64,000 nt of DNA, taken from contig MHVD01000002.1 in NCBI GenBank assembly GCA_001823695.1, positions 15,215 through 79,214 on the forward strand, given 5' to 3'. The position numbers and the translations under genes were made by a program. The notes below the pieces were generated by a model, which was given only the letters and a program-made list of their open reading frames with translations, searched no databases and was not told where the DNA came from. This DNA is from Candidatus Zambryskibacteria bacterium RIFCSPHIGHO2_01_FULL_43_25. Lineage in GTDB: Bacteria > Patescibacteriota > Minisyncoccia > Phycocordibacterales > Zambryskibacteraceae. Positions 1,322-61,912 of this stretch are shown piece by piece (the stretch's first letter is position 1; the number at the start of each line of letters is the position of its first letter).

Positions 1322-2095
1322 TTGACCACGTCTTTGTTTTGGCAGCTCTTTGCCGAGAAAAAGCCGATCATCGCAATGGTTCATGTCTTCGATGGTAAAC
1401 GTCAACGGCAACTTGACCAAGCCCTTGAAGACACTGAACGGCTCCAGCGGGGTGGTGTAGATGCACTACTCGTAGAGAACTATGACTGCGGGTATCTCGA
1501 CGCGAACTGTGCTACTGATGAGATGGCGGAACGGCTCGCCGAAATCGCCATCGCAGTCAAGAAGCACTCGAAAGTCCCCGTCGGCATCAACATCCTCCCG
1601 AATGATTACTGGAAGTCGTTCTCGGTAGCACTTTCTACTGGCGGCGTGTTCATCCAGATGGACCACATCACCGGCGACTTCGGTGGTTGCGAGTCGGTTG
1701 ATCCTGATGATTACCTAGCAACACGAGAGTGCTATCGTAGCGTCGCGGTCTTCGGCGGCATTCATCCCAAATACTATGAGCTCCTAGAGCCGACTTGCTC
1801 ACTCGCGGAATGCGCAAGGAAAGCAATGTCGCTTGCGGACGCAGTGGTAGTAACTGGGCAAGTCACAGGTGATCCTGCGACTCTTGATGACCTTCGCGTT
1901 GCGCGGGAGGCAATAGGCGAGCATCCTCTCGTCATAGGAAGTGGCCTGACTCCACAGAATGTACAGGCGCAACTTGCTATTGCTGACGGCGCGATTGTTG
2001 GCACAGCATTCAAGAGGAGTGGTGTGCGGCCCAGTGAGCCGGTTGATGTTGAGTTGGTCAAGCAACTTATGGACGAAGTTGCGAAGTTACGATAA
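1322..2095 (+). CDS. BtpA/SgcQ-family (TIM-barrel) protein on a GC-rich (~58% GC) island
   Basis: TTG start preceded by AGGAGGTGG. Motifs such as IIAMVHV...GVDALLVEN are BtpA-like. Codon usage is GC3-rich, unlike the neighbouring genes. Confidence 0.5.
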   Translation: MTTSLFWQLFAEKKPIIAMVHVFDGKRQRQLDQALEDTERLQRGGVDALLVENYDCGYLDANCATDEMAERLAEIAIAVKKHSKVPVGINILPNDYWKSFSVALSTGGVFIQMDHITGDFGGCESVDPDDYLATRECYRSVAVFGGIHPKYYELLEPTCSLAECARKAMSLADAVVVTGQVTGDPATLDDLRVAREAIGEHPLVIGSGLTPQNVQAQLAIADGAIVGTAFKRSGVRPSEPVDVELVKQLMDEVAKLR

Positions 2096-3565: not shown

Positions 3566-3593
3566 ACCACAGTCGGTGGATAGTGCTTTTGAC

Positions 3594-3622
3594 TTTTGTT
3601 CCAAATCTGGTAGAATAGCTCC
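3594..3622 (+). promoter_or_regulatory. Sigma70-like promoter (TTGACT-17-TGgTAGAAT) with a long leader for the RRM gene
   Basis: ttgacttttgttccaaatctggtagaat. Confidence 0.4.
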
Positions 3623-3748
3623 TATGTAAGTTGTGTCTCCCAGGGTTTTCTTAGGGTGTGTACGCATTTGTGTCTCATCGAGAAAAAAGCAAGAGAGTTT
3701 CTAGTCGCCTTACATCAGTAGAAGTAAAAGACTAGACAAGTAAGTTAA

Positions 3749-4012
3749 ATGAACAAGAGATTGTTTGTCGGCGGTATTCCGTGGGCGGCTACAGAAGATG
3801 AGCTTCGTAGCGCCTTTGAGAAAGCCGGCACTATCGTTGACCTTCAGATCAGGAGAGATCCTACGAGGGACAATCAGTCGAAAGGTTTCGGCTTTGTCGA
3901 AATGGCGACTGATGAGGAGGCCCAAGCGGCTATTGATCTGCTCAATGGAAAAGACTTCCAGGGCAGAACTCTGACTGTCAATGAAGCTCGTCCGATGAGA
4001 CGACCAGAATAA
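3749..4012 (+). CDS. RRM-type RNA-binding protein (RNP-1 motif KGFGFVEM)
   Basis: LFVGGIPWAATEDELRSAFEKAG...KGFGFVEM...AIDLLNGKDFQGRTLTVNEA is a canonical RRM. Confidence 0.8.
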   Translation: MNKRLFVGGIPWAATEDELRSAFEKAGTIVDLQIRRDPTRDNQSKGFGFVEMATDEEAQAAIDLLNGKDFQGRTLTVNEARPMRRPE

Positions 4013-5920: not shown

Positions 5921-6946
5921 ATGCAAAAAATCAAAGTTGCTGTAAACGGTGCGGGACGCATAGGCCGTGCTTTCATAAAGTTGGCCATTGAGAGGGAAGA
6001 AATAGAAATCGTCGCCGTGAATGATCTCGGCGATATTGAAAATATAGCTTATTTAATTAAGTACGATTCCGTTTACGGCAAGGCGCCGTTTGAAGTGTCT
6101 GTTGAAAGTGATGTTCTTAATCTGGGCGGGAAGAGGATAAAATTTATTTCTGAAAAAGAACCCGCAAAGTTGCCATGGGCCGAGCTTGGCATTGATGTCG
6201 CGGTGGAATCAACCGGTTTTTTTGTTACTTATGAAGAAGCAAAGACTCACCTTGATGCAGGGGCAAAGAGAGTGATAGTTACCGCTCCCATGAAAGATGA
6301 CCCGCATCCGGAAATCCCCGGGGCCACTGTGCTTATGGGTGTCAATGAGTCGCAACTCTCAACTTGTGTTATAAGTTCAAATGCCTCTTGCACTACAAAT
6401 GCGGCAAGTCCACTTATAGCAATTCTTGATGAAGCGTTAGGTATTGAGAAGGCGGTTCTAAACACCGCGCACGCCATGACAAACAGCCAGCCCACGGTGG
6501 ATGGGCCGAACAAACATAATGTTCGGGAAGGAAGAGCCGCTTCGCACAATATCGTGCCGAACACAACGGGTGCGGCAATCGCGGTTACGAAAGCTTTTCC
6601 CAAGCTCTCCGGCCTTTTTGACGGGGTGGCTATGCGGGTTCCTGTAATCGCCGGTTCAATGGTGGATGTTACGTTTATCTCAAAGAAAATGACCAGTAAA
6701 GAAGAGGTGAATGAGATACTGAAAAATGCATCTAAAGAAGAACGTTGGAAGAAGGTTTTCTCCGTTACCGAAGAAGAGCTGGTATCAAGCGACATAATAG
6801 GGAGTCGCTATGGCGCTATAGCAGATTTGTCCCTCACCCGGGTTGTCGGCGGCAATCTAGTGAAAGTTCTGGCGTGGTATGACAACGAAATGGGGTATAC
6901 ATATACTCTTTTGGAACATGTGGTGAAAGCAGGCCAGGGAATATAA
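5921..6946 (+). CDS. gap: Glyceraldehyde-3-phosphate dehydrogenase, type I
   Basis: NGAGRIGR Rossmann motif and SNASCTTNAASPL catalytic Cys motif. A TATAAT sits 8 nt upstream of the ATG (leaderless or near-leaderless). Confidence 0.95.
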   Translation: MQKIKVAVNGAGRIGRAFIKLAIEREEIEIVAVNDLGDIENIAYLIKYDSVYGKAPFEVSVESDVLNLGGKRIKFISEKEPAKLPWAELGIDVAVESTGFFVTYEEAKTHLDAGAKRVIVTAPMKDDPHPEIPGATVLMGVNESQLSTCVISSNASCTTNAASPLIAILDEALGIEKAVLNTAHAMTNSQPTVDGPNKHNVREGRAASHNIVPNTTGAAIAVTKAFPKLSGLFDGVAMRVPVIAGSMVDVTFISKKMTSKEEVNEILKNASKEERWKKVFSVTEEELVSSDIIGSRYGAIADLSLTRVVGGNLVKVLAWYDNEMGYTYTLLEHVVKAGQGI

Positions 6947-10394: not shown

Positions 10395-10688
10395 ATGAAA
10401 AAGATAATTTATATTTTAATTATTATTGCTATATTTGGTAGCCTGATTTTAGTCATAAATCGTAAAAATAACAACGGTATTAGTAACAACGGTATTAGTA
10501 ACAACGGTATTAGTAACAACGGTATTAGTAACAACGGTATTAGTAACAACGGTATTACAGAGGAAGAATGTAATAACCTCAGTGGGAAAATTGTTACCAT
10601 TCAAGATCAGTTAGATGGTGGAATTAGCGGAAAAGTTATTGGTAATATTAAATATAATCAAGCAGGATTGCTTTGTGTTGTTGAATGA
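10395..10688 (+). CDS. Small exported protein with (NNGIS)n tandem repeat
   Basis: N-terminal signal/TM, then NNGISNNGISNNGISNNGISNNGISNNGIT. Confidence 0.5.
   Translation: MKKIIYILIIIAIFGSLILVINRKNNNGISNNGISNNGISNNGISNNGISNNGITEEECNNLSGKIVTIQDQLDGGISGKVIGNIKYNQAGLLCVVE
10470..10557 (+). repeat. Perfect 15-bp tandem repeat (aacaacggtattagt) x ~5.9, in-frame within the CDS
   Basis: Exact copies at 10470, 10485, 10500, 10515, 10530 and a partial copy at 10545. Confidence 0.9.
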
Positions 10689-40638: not shown

Positions 40639-40765
40639 TTTGTGACACGCTATTAGGCATAAGCGATAAGCGTTGTGAAATAGCATTTTGCAATGGGGGC
40701 TTATAGTTTACCGTTTTCTCACTCGTTTAAATATTGTGTAGTAATAGCTATTTGGTTTAGTTTAT

Positions 40766-40805
40766 CAACTATATCCCTTATTCGCGCGAATAAGGGATAT
40801 AGTTG
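40766..40805. repeat. 40-bp perfect palindrome with GCGC centre
   Basis: caactatatcccttattcgc|gcgaataagggatatagttg. Confidence 0.85.
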
Positions 40806-40885
40806 GGAGTGGTTTTAAATTAAAGTAAATTAAGGCGAAAACATCTAGATATAATTGTATTTATCAGCTGATGGAAACATTTCGT

Positions 40886-40923
40886 ATTCTATTTGATATT
40901 TTGCGCAAAATATCAAATAGAAT
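40886..40923. repeat. 38-bp perfect palindrome with GCGC centre
   Basis: attctatttgatattttgc|gcaaaatatcaaatagaat. Confidence 0.85.
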
Positions 40924-40969
40924 GCTGGATTAGCGAGTAATAGTTAACGTTAAATTTTTTAAGCACAAA

Positions 40970-41000
40970 CCCTGACGTAACAAGTCCCGTTACGTCAGGG
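40970..41000 (-). terminator. Intrinsic terminator (GACGTAAC hairpin family) for the minus-strand GC-rich gene
   Basis: ccctgacgtaac-loop-gttacgtcaggg; on the minus strand it is followed by tttgtgctt. Confidence 0.6.
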
Positions 41001-41017
41001 TGGCCACGGGGGTCAGT

Positions 41018-41401
41018 TCACAGTTCCATACATGCTCTGATGAACTTCTCAGTGATTGCGTACCGTCCGTCGGTGAACAATACGAGGTATGGCGGTGCAT
41101 CCGTCCACTCTTCTCTGTTGGCCTGCTTGAGACTTGCATCGTCGTACCACACTCCGGACAGTCCGAAAAACATCAAGTCTGGGTCCCAACCTTGAGAGTT
41201 GTAGAACTCAACCAGCTCCCGAATCGTAAATCTGGTCCACTCTCCACGTGATCTGAAGAAAAGGAGCAGTTTGGCGGCGGCGACCTCAACCTCATGCTTG
41301 CCAAACCTCCCTACCGCGAGCCCTCTCATCTCGATTTGCAATGGAGTTGACAGTTTGAGGGCGGCCGCGTCCGAATTGCTCCATACCTCTTGGGTGGTCA
41401 T
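41018..41401 (-). CDS. Hypothetical protein on a GC-rich cassette (~56% GC)
   Basis: AGGAGG RBS before the internal ATG (MTTQEV...). No recognisable domain. Own terminator. Confidence 0.4.
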   Translation of the reverse strand: MTTQEVWSNSDAAALKLSTPLQIEMRGLAVGRFGKHEVEVAAAKLLLFFRSRGEWTRFTIRELVEFYNSQGWDPDLMFFGLSGVWYDDASLKQANREEWTDAPPYLVLFTDGRYAITEKFIRACMEL

Positions 41402-41533
41402 TTTCCAGCCTCCTGTTTTCTGTGGTTGTACTTCCAAAGCAAAGACTATCACTGGCAGAGTAGTGTGTCAAAAGCCGAAACTCCTGATGTATAAGTATGT
41501 TGAAAGAAACCTAAAATCTACACAAAAACAAAA

Positions 41534-41567
41534 CCCCGACGTAATTACGTATGTAATTACGTCGGGG
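41534..41567 (-). terminator. Intrinsic terminator (15-bp stem, same GACGTAA family) for the CYTH gene
   Basis: ccccgacgtaattac-gtat-gtaattacgtcgggg; on the minus strand it is followed by ttttgtttttgtg. Confidence 0.7.
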
Positions 41568-41600
41568 GGCAGAACTGTTTCAGTTGTCAGGGTGAGCGGG

Positions 41601-42101
41601 CTAACCCAACGATCCTCGGGCGATTTCTCTGTTGGAGTACTTCTTCTGGCCGGTGACTTCAACGTATCTCCTACCGAGGTGCTCGGGGAAATGAACCATC
41701 TCGTTCATGTCCTCAAGCTCAACCTCAAGGATGACCAGCCAGTCCACGGGCTCCAAATACTTATCCAGTTCGAATGTGTGGCCCATGTATTCAAACGTAT
41801 AGCGGATCTTTCGGATGGTGGCGCTATCAAGGTCCCTTTCTTTCAGAAAAAGAGAGTACTCTTCGGCGCTGATTTCCAACTCTTCCTCTTGGCGAATGCC
41901 TGTCTTGCCCGCCGGCTTCTTGGTTGTATAGAAGAATCTCGTGGAACCTGCGGTGATGACCTTTCTGACGCGCCTTTCAGCGCCGGAATCGTCCGTGAGG
42001 TAGGTCTGCTCTATCTCTCTTACGGATGCGTCCTCCGGAATCATGAACGGGCTGAAGTCCGATACGCGAAACTTCCTCTCAATCTCAAGCTTGTTTGCCA
42101 T
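41601..42101 (-). CDS. CYTH-domain protein (CyaB/thiamine-triphosphatase-like triphosphate tunnel metalloenzyme)
   Basis: N-terminal LEIERKF (ExExK), acidic EEELEISAEE and LEVELE strands. Own promoter TTGATC-16-TAATAT and AGGAG RBS upstream. Confidence 0.65.
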   Translation of the reverse strand: MANKLEIERKFRVSDFSPFMIPEDASVREIEQTYLTDDSGAERRVRKVITAGSTRFFYTTKKPAGKTGIRQEEELEISAEEYSLFLKERDLDSATIRKIRYTFEYMGHTFELDKYLEPVDWLVILEVELEDMNEMVHFPEHLGRRYVEVTGQKKYSNREIARGSLG

Positions 42102-42169
42102 TGCAGTTCTCCTGTGGAGGAAGGAACTATACCAACGTCTATATTACATTCTTAATTTTTTTGATCAAA

Positions 42170-44095
42170 CTACACAAAAACAAAATCCAGTGTTCTTTTG
42201 TCCAGGTCGGCATCAACGAGTTTCACTCTTACTTTGTCTCCAAGCGTAAACTTCCTTTTTAATTTTGTGCCAACGATAGCGTAATTTTCTCTTTGGAGTT
42301 CATAAAAATCATCAGTCATATCTCTCATTCTGACCATTCCTTCCGCTTTGGTTTCAGTTTCTTCAACATAGACACCCCACTCGGATACTCCGGAAACGAC
42401 AGCATTAAATTCCTCGCCGACATGTCCGAGCATATACTCAACCTGTTTGTATTTGATTGAAGCTCTCTCCGCTTCGGCAGCAGAAATTTCCTTGTCTGAC
42501 GAGTCTTGAGCGATGCTTTGATAGAGAGCGATCTCATCTCTGGCGACCTGTCCGCTTGTCAGGTAACGCTCAAAAAGCCGGTGAACTATGAGGTCGGGAT
42601 ACCGGCGGATTGGGGAAGTGAAATGGGTGTAGTACTTGAAAGCCAAGCCAAAATGGCCAATGTTTTTTGTGGAATAAATCGCTTTTGCCATAGAACGGAT
42701 AGCCGCAGTCTTGACCAAAGATTCTTCCTCCGTGCCATCAACTTGTTTGAGCAGGACGTTCATATCCTTTGCGGAAATCGTACCGTTCTCAATCGGCAGG
42801 TGGTATCCCAGCGCTTTGATAAAGACCGACAGCTCGGCAATCTTATCCCTGTCCGGTATGTCGTGTATTCGGTATATGAACGATTTGTTCTGGCGGGTTT
42901 TCTTCTCGTCTTTGTACATAAACTCGGCTACCTCGCGATTTGCCAAAAGCATAAATTCCTCCACCAATTTGTGGGTGTCCTTACGCTCCTTCTTGTATAT
43001 GCGGACGGGTACGCCGTCTTTATCAAGCTCAAACTTTATTTCTTCCGCTTCAAAATCTATGGCGCCGGCGGCAAACTTCTTCTCAGCGAGTTTTTTTGCG
43101 ATGCGATTCAGTATGTTGAGTTCATTATAAAAATCACCCCGTTTTTTGTCCAAAATATCTTGTGCCTCTTCATAGACGAAACGCCTGTTCGAGTGAATTA
43201 CTGTTTTGCCGAACCACCTCTCCAAAACCTCCCCGTTTTCATTCATTGTGAAGACGGCCGAGAAAGTCAGTTTATCTTGGTTGGGGTTCAGGGAGCAGAG
43301 TTCGTTTGAAAGCGTTTCCGGAAGCATCGGGATAGTGCGGTCAACGAGGTAAACCGAAAATCCTCTTTTGCGCGCCTCCCTGTCTAGTGCATTTTTAGGC
43401 CTGACAAAAAAGGAAACATCCGCGATGTGAATACCTATTTCATATTTGCCGCCAGGTAGCTCTTTTATGGAGAGCGCATCGTCAAAGTCTTTGGCGTCCT
43501 GCGGGTCAATAGTAAACGTTGTAGTGCCCCGGAAGTTTCTTCTTTTGGCTGCCTCGACTTCAAATTCTTTCGGATATCCTGTCTTTATCTTTTGGGCCTC
43601 TTTCTCAACCGTGGCGGAAAACTCGGTATCAAAACCTCGCTCGAGCACAATGGCCCGCATCTCAACCTCGTGGCTGCCCTTGCGGCCGAGGATTTGAATG
43701 ACCCTGCCTTCAGGCGACTTGTCGGGGTCCTTCCAGCTGATTATTTCAACAAATACCTTGTCTCCATCTTTGGCCTTTTTTGATTTTGATGAATGGACGA
43801 AAATGTCCCGATACATTCGGCGATCGTCCGGCTTCAGGAAAAAGAAGTCACCCGACTGCTCCAATACTCCAACGAAGCGTATCTTTGTGCGCTTAATAAT
43901 CCTTAAAACCTCGCCCTGCTGCCGCAGATTCTTCTTTTTGGGAAAAACGGCTATTTCCACCTCGTCGCCGTTAAGAGCGGTTTTAAGCAGGCCTTCAGGA
44001 ATTTCAATATCTTCTTCAAATCGGTCCGACTCGAAGTAGCCGATTCCCCGGCCGGTTACTATTATCGGTCCGGTAAGCTTAGTGTTTTCTTTCAT
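42170..44095 (-). CDS. rnr: Ribonuclease R (RNB family) with C-terminal S1 domain
   Basis: Cold-shock/OB N-terminus, RNB catalytic region and S1 domain GEEFNAVVSGVSEWGVYVE. Confidence 0.85.
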   Translation of the reverse strand: MKENTKLTGPIIVTGRGIGYFESDRFEEDIEIPEGLLKTALNGDEVEIAVFPKKKNLRQQGEVLRIIKRTKIRFVGVLEQSGDFFFLKPDDRRMYRDIFVHSSKSKKAKDGDKVFVEIISWKDPDKSPEGRVIQILGRKGSHEVEMRAIVLERGFDTEFSATVEKEAQKIKTGYPKEFEVEAAKRRNFRGTTTFTIDPQDAKDFDDALSIKELPGGKYEIGIHIADVSFFVRPKNALDREARKRGFSVYLVDRTIPMLPETLSNELCSLNPNQDKLTFSAVFTMNENGEVLERWFGKTVIHSNRRFVYEEAQDILDKKRGDFYNELNILNRIAKKLAEKKFAAGAIDFEAEEIKFELDKDGVPVRIYKKERKDTHKLVEEFMLLANREVAEFMYKDEKKTRQNKSFIYRIHDIPDRDKIAELSVFIKALGYHLPIENGTISAKDMNVLLKQVDGTEEESLVKTAAIRSMAKAIYSTKNIGHFGLAFKYYTHFTSPIRRYPDLIVHRLFERYLTSGQVARDEIALYQSIAQDSSDKEISAAEAERASIKYKQVEYMLGHVGEEFNAVVSGVSEWGVYVEETETKAEGMVRMRDMTDDFYELQRENYAIVGTKLKRKFTLGDKVRVKLVDADLDKRTLDFVFV

Positions 44096-61371: not shown

Positions 61372-61460
61372 AACATTCAACCTACAAGTCAGACCTGTAG
61401 GAAACGATCTGTAGGAAACATGTGTTTTTTATTATCAGTAATTGCAATAAAAGTGAAAGC

Positions 61461-61505
61461 CCGCCGGTGCTTGCCTGCCTGAGCAGACAGGCGCGCGCGG
61501 CGGGC
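61461..61505 (-). terminator. Complex GC hairpin terminator for the minus-strand GC-rich gene
   Basis: gcccgccg...gcctgcctgagcagacaggc...cggcgggc; on the minus strand it is followed by tttcacttttatt. Confidence 0.5.
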
Positions 61506-61513
61506 CCATTTCC

Positions 61514-61822
61514 TTACCGTAGTAAGGGAACGACATAGAGGGTTCCGGTTCGGCTGAGGGTGTTGAAGTATACCCGGTGTCGCTTGCCGAGCATGTTGAG
61601 GACGAGGTTCCAGCTGTTACCGCTACCGTCCTCAACCTGAATGCTTTCAATGAATGCATCGAATACTTCACCCTTCACCTTGAATTGCGGATTCGTCTGC
61701 AGGATCATCGGTTCCACAGTGAAGGAAATCTTTCTTCCTTCATGCCGAAGCCGGAGGGCGTCGAAGAGTTGTTCCCGCGACGGGCCAGCGACGATGATTT
61801 TCCGTGTCTCTTGGTTGGTCAT
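61514..61822 (-). CDS. Hypothetical protein (102 aa) on a GC-rich (~54% GC) cassette
   Basis: GGAGG 6 nt before the ATG (MTNQETRK...). No recognisable domain. Confidence 0.45.
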   Translation of the reverse strand: MTNQETRKIIVAGPSREQLFDALRLRHEGRKISFTVEPMILQTNPQFKVKGEVFDAFIESIQVEDGSGNSWNLVLNMLGKRHRVYFNTLSRTGTLYVVPLLR

Positions 61823-61912
61823 AACGACCTCCATGAAGAACAATCTCCTTATTGGGGAAGAAGTACCCCGTTGCTCCGAGGAGCCACCTACCCATAACGA
61901 GTAGGAATTCTT

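Follow-up and report, generated by a model that had tools for sequence, protein, structure and literature searches.

How did two small genes of deviant composition come to lie directly behind the stop codon of a housekeeping gene, and what is recorded by the short repeat that brackets one of them? The question is raised by the spacer between rnr, which encodes RNase R, and smc in a metagenome-assembled genome (MAG) of Candidatus Zambryskibacteria, an ultra-small groundwater bacterium of the Patescibacteria (also termed the candidate phyla radiation, CPR) from the Rifle aquifer. The stretch of DNA analysed, here called the window, covers 64 kb of this genome and was assigned to contig MHVY01000016.1 of GCA_001823895.1. 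Two single-gene units occupy the spacer: one encodes a protein of the CYTH (triphosphate-tunnel-metalloenzyme) family, and the other a protein of an uncharacterised family, here called p127. According to the explanation that we favour and regard as probable, these are two separately acquired units that do not form a functional pair, the CYTH unit having entered by a single crossover at the 16-bp end of rnr.

The 16-mer CTACACAAAAACAAAA occurs twice in the window as an exact direct repeat and nowhere else in it (Table 1), as the initial annotation of this DNA had described, with the distal copy closing the CYTH unit. Within 2 mismatches, the single other match lies at 1237-1252, compared to 0.09 expected from shuffles. 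The proximal copy consists of the last base of a GAT codon and TTT GTT TTT GTG TAG, that is, on the minus strand, the rnr ending D F V F V stop, in agreement with its earlier reading as the last four codons and stop of this gene. Because the ending D-F-[VI]-[LF]-[VI]-stop also closes rnr in the relatives L014 and L015, the copy within rnr is the native and selected one. The period of the structure is 652 bp, made up of a 16-mer, a 636-bp unit and a 16-mer; its left border is the rnr stop codon and its right border the foot of hairpin 1, and the identity of the repeat extends to 20 of 22 nt. Only for rnr, 1 of the 53 window genes, does the 16-nt gene tail recur, exactly or with at most 1 mismatch. 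Exact repeats of 14-17 nt no more than 5 kb apart are present in about nine cases in the AT-rich window, and native terminators here carry T/G-rich tails such as TTTGTGTTT and TTTTGTTT. The non-randomness of the repeat rests on its placement at both borders of one unit, not on its length alone. At least 8 independent assemblies from different samples match to the base, and this agreement means that the repeat structure is not an assembly artefact. A possible third copy after hairpin 2 was also considered and was not significant.

The two genes stand out by base composition. The overall GC content of the window is 43.7% and the mean gene GC is 42.9%, versus 51.5% for CYTH and 53.1% for p127; the contrast pointed out earlier is therefore real, although the figure of about 55% then given was too high. 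It is clearer in the GC content of third codon positions (GC3), with 0.677 for CYTH and 0.633 for p127 against 0.438 +/- 0.063 in 49 background genes, values that place them first and third among the 53 window genes. In 80 viral CYTH loci, the GC of the gene tracks that of its flanks (r 0.93, slope 1.0, difference -0.022 +/- 0.026), whereas the window CYTH gene exceeds its genome by about 0.08, about 4 standard deviations from the viral behaviour. This excess over the flanks, unlike that of viral CYTH genes, points to a recent arrival.

The same site was compared in 80 relatives from a species-level genome collection (185,579 species genomes), in which rnr is 48-60% identical to the window gene. 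The gene order trmD-khpA-rpsP<-, rnr->, <-smc-rnc is kept in most of them. The rnr/smc spacer, by comparison, ranges from 0 to 3419 bp, with 100 bp or less in seven lineages, and the open reading frames (ORFs) of the filled spacers fall into 54 singleton families and one lineage-specific conserved gene with 21 members. Neither CYTH nor p127 was found in the spacers of the 80 relatives, even at E = 1. Spacer ORFs that are GC-rich relative to their host are present in L014, L034, L035, L040, L048 and L079. In the close relatives L014 and L015 a filled and an empty site can be compared, the spacers being 980 bp and 69 bp long; the former holds a 255-aa gene (5997-6764, minus strand) with a GC of 0.59, a GC3 of 0.76 and no Pfam match, beside an rnr with a GC of 0.37, and the latter carries a bidirectional terminator. 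Since the length and content of the spacer vary and neither gene is seen in the relatives, the spacer can be described as a lineage-wide sink for foreign genes, to which CYTH and p127 are additions. That both genes are horizontally acquired foreign DNA inserted beside rnr is thus supported.

The best rnr relative among the species genomes is 60% identical, and for this reason the empty site was reconstructed at the level of gene order. Empty-site alleles were sought through exact-protein look-ups of rnr, CYTH and p127 and through members of the 90% cluster of rnr; these gave the same population, with both units present. Contig breaks between the units were considered as alternative junctions and rejected, as the breaks fall inside palindromes and are assembly effects.

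A second duplication of the rnr end was found when 55 filled spacers were screened for copies of the rnr or smc ends. The one clear case is L052, a third-party MAG whose duplication is taken from its assembly as deposited. In L052, a 46-nt segment, comprising the last 24 nt of rnr and the next 22 nt, is repeated 1007 bp downstream with 93% identity, and the downstream copy is preceded by an exact 16-nt block from 72-87 nt upstream of the rnr stop. The repeats (1705-1814 and 2758-2821) bracket an insert of about 0.95 kb with a GC of 0.34 in a context of 0.47. Within the insert, an AGOG-like gene runs on the opposite strand, and the junction of the distal copy with the following gene is the native one. 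In L052 and at the window rnr, events of one kind have occurred independently, with different duplication lengths. The difference in length from 16 therefore speaks against a fixed staggered cut and for circle integration via a shared patch.

The favoured explanation can be set out as follows. Two self-contained single-gene transcription units, acquired separately, would occupy the rnr-smc spacer, which would act as a general sink for accessory genes. The CYTH unit would have entered by recombination within the last 16 bp of rnr, leaving this sequence on both sides, so that the 16-mer is, under this explanation, the scar of the insertion. The route was most likely a single crossover that joined a circular or circularised fragment, composed of promoter, CYTH gene, hairpin and T/G-rich tail, to rnr at its identical T/G-rich end. 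The crossover could have relied on short homology, or on an att-type (attachment-site) reaction by a site-specific integrase acting in trans, which would give an equal product. Such an event would leave rnr intact and would let the distal 16-mer copy serve as the U-tract of the CYTH terminator. With the unit closed via the 16-mer, the CYTH promoter would adjoin hairpin 1 and the T/G tail in one uninterrupted terminator-promoter composite. The empty site for CYTH would then read ...CACTGGATTTTGTTTTTGTGTAG joined to ATTTTAGGTTTC, and the circle junction ...ACGTCGGGGTTTTGTTTTTGTGTAG joined to TTTGATCAAAAAAATT. The circular intermediate, the enzyme responsible and the order of the two insertions are what we infer in this model. 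As for the initial annotation, which had read the locus as site-specific or target-duplicating insertion of foreign cassettes, GC3, the relatives and L052 bear out the foreign insertion, which may have been site-specific or target-duplicating; no recombinase in the unit and no clean terminal inverted repeats were found.

Several observations weigh against this explanation. No gene for an integrase, transposase or other recombinase was detected in the CYTH unit; the same holds for the 28 window proteins searched with Pfam models and for 12 genes from the spacers of relatives. A length of 16 bp is short for RecA-type recombination. Because native tails are T/G-rich, uniform statistics overstate how surprising part of the 16-mer identity is. 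Flanking repeats are absent around the window's two other GC-rich genes, and duplication of the rnr end was met in just 1 of the 55 relatives with a filled spacer, so the repeat is not a general mark of such insertions. Close donors were not identified, the best homologue being 46% identical for CYTH and the best relative 55% identical for p127. Neither an empty-site allele nor a circle junction was encountered, and all strain variants carry both units.

Among the other explanations, an integrase-less remnant of a classical integrative element, resembling a cis-mobilizable element (CIME), is unlikely. In this case a tyrosine-integrase element would have its target at the 3' end of rnr, with the 16-mer as its att core, and its integrase would have been deleted or would act from elsewhere. 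Integrative elements of the att type are usually recognised by a direct repeat through which the 3' end of a housekeeping gene is restored, and the window repeat both includes and restores the rnr end, which has in addition been duplicated independently in L052. In L189, the gene for a 310-aa tyrosine recombinase also precedes the closest p127 relative by 45 bp. However, that recombinase has host-like GC and no flanking repeats, and thus resembles a resident Xer-type gene. The bracketed unit is just 652 bp long and lacks a recombinase, as do the scanned window proteins and spacer genes; no integrase-bearing element using an att site at the rnr end was seen in the spacers of the 80 relatives, and the 16-mer does not have the dyad symmetry typical of core sites.

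Transposition is distinctly unlikely. Here the end of rnr would have been cut with a 16-bp stagger by a transposase or casposase-like integrase acting in trans, and gap repair around the ligated non-autonomous cargo would have produced a target-site duplication, as would suit an exact direct repeat immediately flanking a discrete unit. A weak inverted similarity also links the region upstream of CYTH to hairpin 1 (20 of 26 columns, reached by 0.45% of shuffles); however, it is gapped and post hoc, and it begins 12 nt inside the left border, so it is sub-terminal. The ends of the CYTH unit have no clean terminal inverted repeats, no transposase is encoded in the unit or among the scanned window proteins, and the unit and its hairpins were found nowhere else. 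For the hairpins, the search for further family members that the initial annotation had proposed revealed no wider family: no further copies exist in about 241 million metagenome records or 2.9 million viral contigs. The pattern ACCCYGACGTAA..TTACGTCRGG gave two matches on metagenome contigs, both high-GC and unrelated, and the exact-arm patterns gave none in viral contigs. Further copies of the proteins of the unit outside the locus were likewise not found. A duplication of at least 46 nt in L052, rather than 16, and the absence of duplication at the other foreign genes of the window also argue against this route.

Chance or convergence, in which an ordinary terminator's T/G-rich U-tract would happen to look like the FVFV-stop codons of rnr and the repeat would carry no information on insertion, is very unlikely. 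The tails of native terminators and the nine unrelated repeats of similar length described above are in keeping with it, yet the identity is 16 of 16 and includes GTGTAG, a single gene tail in the window recurs, both copies stand exactly at the two borders of the compositional island, and an analogous, longer duplication exists in L052. The initial annotation had raised the possibility of a small signalling or defence-type module. That CYTH and p127 are one such functional module, acquired as a block, is highly improbable, although they are adjacent, share an orientation and are alike in GC3 and in their terminator hairpins. The 16-mer derived from rnr separates them, which means that they did not arrive as one piece, and the idea is unsupported because no PADLOC defence model is matched (E <= 1), the gene contexts of relatives show no conserved association with defence genes, and among the 82 viral loci and 11 cellular contexts examined for either family the two are never together, p127 being absent as a neighbour of CYTH relatives in 80 viral loci and two cellular contexts.

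Table 1. Features of the rnr-smc region, in window coordinates
Feature	Position	Strand	Remarks
smc, 750 aa	38386..40638	+	Convergent housekeeping gene; limits the variable spacer
AT-rich non-coding spacer to convergent smc	40639..40968	.	Perfect palindromes of 40 bp (40766-40805) and 38 bp (40886-40923)
Hairpin 2	40969..41001	-	13-bp perfect stem, 7-nt loop; p127 terminator
p127, 127 aa + stop	41018..41401	-	Uncharacterised family mainly of Patescibacteria-type loci; GC3 0.633
116-bp spacer 5' of p127	41402..41517	-	Candidate promoter and AGGAGG
p127 ribosome-binding site	41409-41414	-	AGGAGG
p127 candidate promoter	41471-41466, 41448-41442	-	TTGACA-17-TAGTCT, TGn-extended; read from the sequence, not called by the consensus scan
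Distal 16-bp repeat copy, non-coding	41518..41533	-	Directly 3' of hairpin 1; provides the U-tract (GGGG followed by TTTTGTTTTTGTGTAG)
Hairpin 1	41534..41567	-	15-bp perfect stem, 4-nt loop; CYTH terminator, now also for rnr read-through
CYTH (triphosphate-tunnel-metalloenzyme) gene, 166 aa	41601..42101	-	PF01928, phrog_6660, NeuTTM 2FBL; GC3 0.677
rnr-CYTH spacer, 68 bp, AT-rich (34% GC)	42102..42169	-	Promoter-like site and AGGAG
CYTH ribosome-binding site	42109-42113	-	AGGAG
CYTH promoter-like site	-35 42155-42150, -10 42131-42126	-	TTAAGA-18-TATAGT, TG-extended; consensus match only
Proximal 16-bp repeat copy	42170..42185	-	Last four codons + stop of rnr
rnr (RNase R), 641 aa	42170..44095	-	Housekeeping gene, 3' end is the insertion point; RNB 4.6e-110, CSD2, OB_RNB, S1 domains

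The surroundings of the two units consist of housekeeping genes, with rpoB/C, trmD, khpA and rpsP on one side and smc, rnc and nusB on the other. The scanned proteins include no phage genes, integrases or transposases, and 20 further window proteins belong to ordinary metabolism, the envelope or replication, or lack a Pfam match. RNA genes were looked for in the region and none was found. In the spacer between p127 and smc, several independent assemblies end exactly at the two perfect palindromes, which could be terminators or protein-binding sites.

Most of the layout attributed to the CYTH unit by the initial annotation is present, namely its ribosome-binding site, PF01928 gene and 15-bp-stem hairpin. 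The same holds for the adjacent unit, with its own ribosome-binding site and a hairpin of the GACGTAA...TTACGTC type, except that its product is 127 aa and not 128 aa in length. The promoters are a different matter, as promoter-like matches in both units are at consensus level and no more frequent than in shuffles; promoters belonging to the units themselves are plausible as candidates read from the sequence. No terminator was found between rnr and CYTH. The tail after hairpin 1 is TTTTGTTTTT, and the 96-nt stretch that holds this hairpin (41510-41605) folds with -33.4 kcal/mol (z -5.2). Hairpins 1 and 2 have the arm CCCYGACGTAA in common, and the pattern GACGTAA...TTACGTC is present in the window at these two hairpins only, with 0.00 expected. 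As a separate observation, the upstream region of each unit weakly resembles its own 3' hairpin (42158-42133 versus 41543-41565 for CYTH, 41497-41478 versus hairpin 2 for p127), a resemblance reached by 0.45% and 3.8% of shuffles, respectively; cross-comparisons gave nothing, and the observation is post hoc and marginal.

The CYTH protein matches Pfam PF01928 over residues 5-158 with 34.1 bits, above the cut-off of 23.2, and phrog_6660 at 1e-17. The ExExK motif and tunnel residues (E6, E8, K10, R44, R46, K61, E72, E74, K98, R100, E111, D113, E126 and E128) are invariant in 20 relatives, which indicates an intact enzyme. The product is most likely a metal-dependent tri-/polyphosphate or nucleoside triphosphate triphosphohydrolase, a predicted activity. 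Among viruses, 182 confirmed IMG/VR stretches carry relatives, many of them on contigs of 200-500 kb, and relatives are also found in cultured Aeromonas, Vibrio and Brevundimonas phages (T4-like and jumbo), some annotated as inorganic triphosphatase. Ordinary bacterial chromosomes carry CYTH relatives too.

The homology check on p127 placed it in an uncharacterised family. Its structure model is confident and has no significant structural match; the modelled fold is weakly suggestive of a winged helix. Its relatives are stand-alone units at different loci, each ending in an unrelated terminator of its own. Three separate loci (L096, L097 and L191) have the relative directly upstream of rplC, between rpsJ and rplC; in other contexts the relative follows an Xer-like recombinase (relative at 3667-4074 of L189), forms a lone opposite-strand gene (4001-4387 of L190) or stands beside unknown genes (relative at 5001-5417 of L094). 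The GC of the family genes ranges from 0.45 to 0.56 (about 0.49-0.56, with GC3 0.55-0.64, for the window gene and its relatives in L189, L190, L094, L096, L097 and L191) and that of the host loci from 0.39 to 0.60, with r about 0 in a small sample (n=9, including two viral loci); the relative in L190, for example, has a GC of 0.54 among neighbours of 0.27-0.45. In so small a sample, this host-independent GC suggests either habitual horizontal mobility or a compositional constraint. In the favoured explanation, the p127 family behaves as a frequently transferred stand-alone gene.

Some further observations concern the loci of these relatives. The copies adjoining rplC at the three loci (L096 67-474; L097 5001-5372, also seen in L098 and L099; L191 232-603) are 31-54% identical to that of the window, and L097 has three more unknown small genes in the rpsJ-rplC gap of an otherwise conserved S10 operon. 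In L190, a 32-nt direct repeat (3593-3624 and 3899-3930, 94%) lies just 5' of two successive small minus-strand genes beside the p127 relative. These encode a GIY-YIG protein and an ArsR-type helix-turn-helix (HTH) protein, of 86 aa each, and the arrangement resembles a repeated promoter cassette bracketing a single gene.

Elsewhere in the window, a third small gene (61514-61831, minus strand, 105 aa) has a GC3 of 0.651, one of the three highest values. It has no Pfam match, its own ribosome-binding site, a GC-rich terminator hairpin at about 61457-61505 and no flanking direct repeat, and is probably another acquired single-gene unit. A BtpA-family gene (1322-2095, plus strand; GC 0.536, z 2.8) also has its own ribosome-binding site and a GC-rich terminator, and the T/G-rich tail at 1237-1252, the near match to the 16-mer, lies upstream of it. 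An HTH and SocA/Panacea antitoxin-like gene (99-680) overlaps an unknown gene of 131 aa (670-1065), and the two may be a toxin-antitoxin pair. Finally, a 15-nt unit, GTATTAGTAACAACG, is repeated in tandem in about 7-9 copies in a non-coding stretch at 10447-10581.

Single-gene transfers, for the most part between Patescibacteria, are already documented in large numbers (PMC12455944). The locus described here is a well-resolved example of such ordinary horizontal gene acquisition and not a new system. The junctions of single-gene transfers are rarely resolved, and in this locus it can be read base by base: at the stop codon of an essential gene, whose last 16 bp are duplicated, stands a unit of cargo only, with the duplicate co-opted as a terminator tail. 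Together, the window and L052 provide a searchable pattern, the duplication of a gene end beside a compositional outlier, and a search for this pattern would show in what way recombinase-poor, ultra-small genomes acquire genes. The p127 family is also flagged by this analysis as an uncharacterised family, mainly of Patescibacteria-type loci, whose composition is independent of the host.

In comparison with known systems, the window units resemble integron cassettes in being small, single-ORF and hairpin-ended in the manner of an imperfect palindrome, and in standing head to tail. They differ in that neither hairpin has RYYYAAC/GTTRRRY core sites in or beside it, the stems are perfect over 13-15 bp, the units have apparent promoters of their own, and the gene upstream of them is rnr; no intI or attI was found, nor a tyrosine recombinase among the window proteins scanned. 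Repetitive extragenic palindromic (REP) elements and their associated transposases (REP-associated tyrosine transposases, RAYT) involve many GTAG-headed palindromes, whereas the window has just two hairpins and its GTAG lies 12 nt from the stem. Xer/dif-type modules are bounded by 28-bp XerC-spacer-XerD sites; the arms of the window hairpins measure 13-15 bp and their centres 4-7 nt. Transposons and miniature inverted-repeat transposable elements (MITEs) have inverted repeats at their exact ends and multiple copies with target duplications of constant length, which the window unit does not. Like CIMEs and genomic islets, the window unit consists of cargo only, and its repeat includes and restores the 3' end of a housekeeping gene; however, it is 652 bp long, it has no known related integrase-bearing element, and its repeat is without recombinase-core symmetry. 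At the protein level, the nearest solved structure for CYTH is NeuTTM (PDB 2FBL), a stand-alone bacterial enzyme that likewise consists of one CYTH domain, about 150-170 aa in length, with conserved tunnel residues and the ExExK motif; the sequence match is weak (E 1.7e-6), and the window gene is a horizontally acquired one for a predicted enzyme.

Phage morons are independent transcription units added between conserved genes (PMC3594210). The window units are similar to them in being single-gene units with a terminator of their own, a candidate promoter and deviant GC, absent at this position in relatives, and the CYTH family is common in phages. They differ in lying in a chromosomal housekeeping region (rnr, smc, rnc, rpsP, trmD, rpoBC) and not in a phage or prophage, and the bracketing of the CYTH unit by a 16-bp duplication of the end of a neighbouring gene is outside the definition of a moron. 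In T4-type phages, promoter early stem-loop elements (PeSLs) combine promoter and stem-loop motifs, and recombination between them shuffles ORFs and yields mini-circles (PMC2839356, PMC4122927). The unknown or auxiliary ORFs of the window are similarly separated by spacers with terminator stem-loop and promoter, two of the stem-loops are related, and a short direct repeat marks the borders of the unit, a structure that a circular intermediate would explain. The differences are that related hairpins number just two in the 64 kb of the window, that a motif family spread over the genome was not found, that the genome is cellular, and that mini-circles would be a feature of the model here. A broader reading, which we consider improbable as it stands, is that Patescibacteria, and possibly phages, swap promoter-ORF-hairpin circles that re-insert at short regulatory or gene-end sequences, with the end of rnr as a recurrent landing site and p127 habitually mobile at about 53% GC. 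If true, this exchange of circles would be the cellular counterpart of the modular shuffling mediated by PeSLs.

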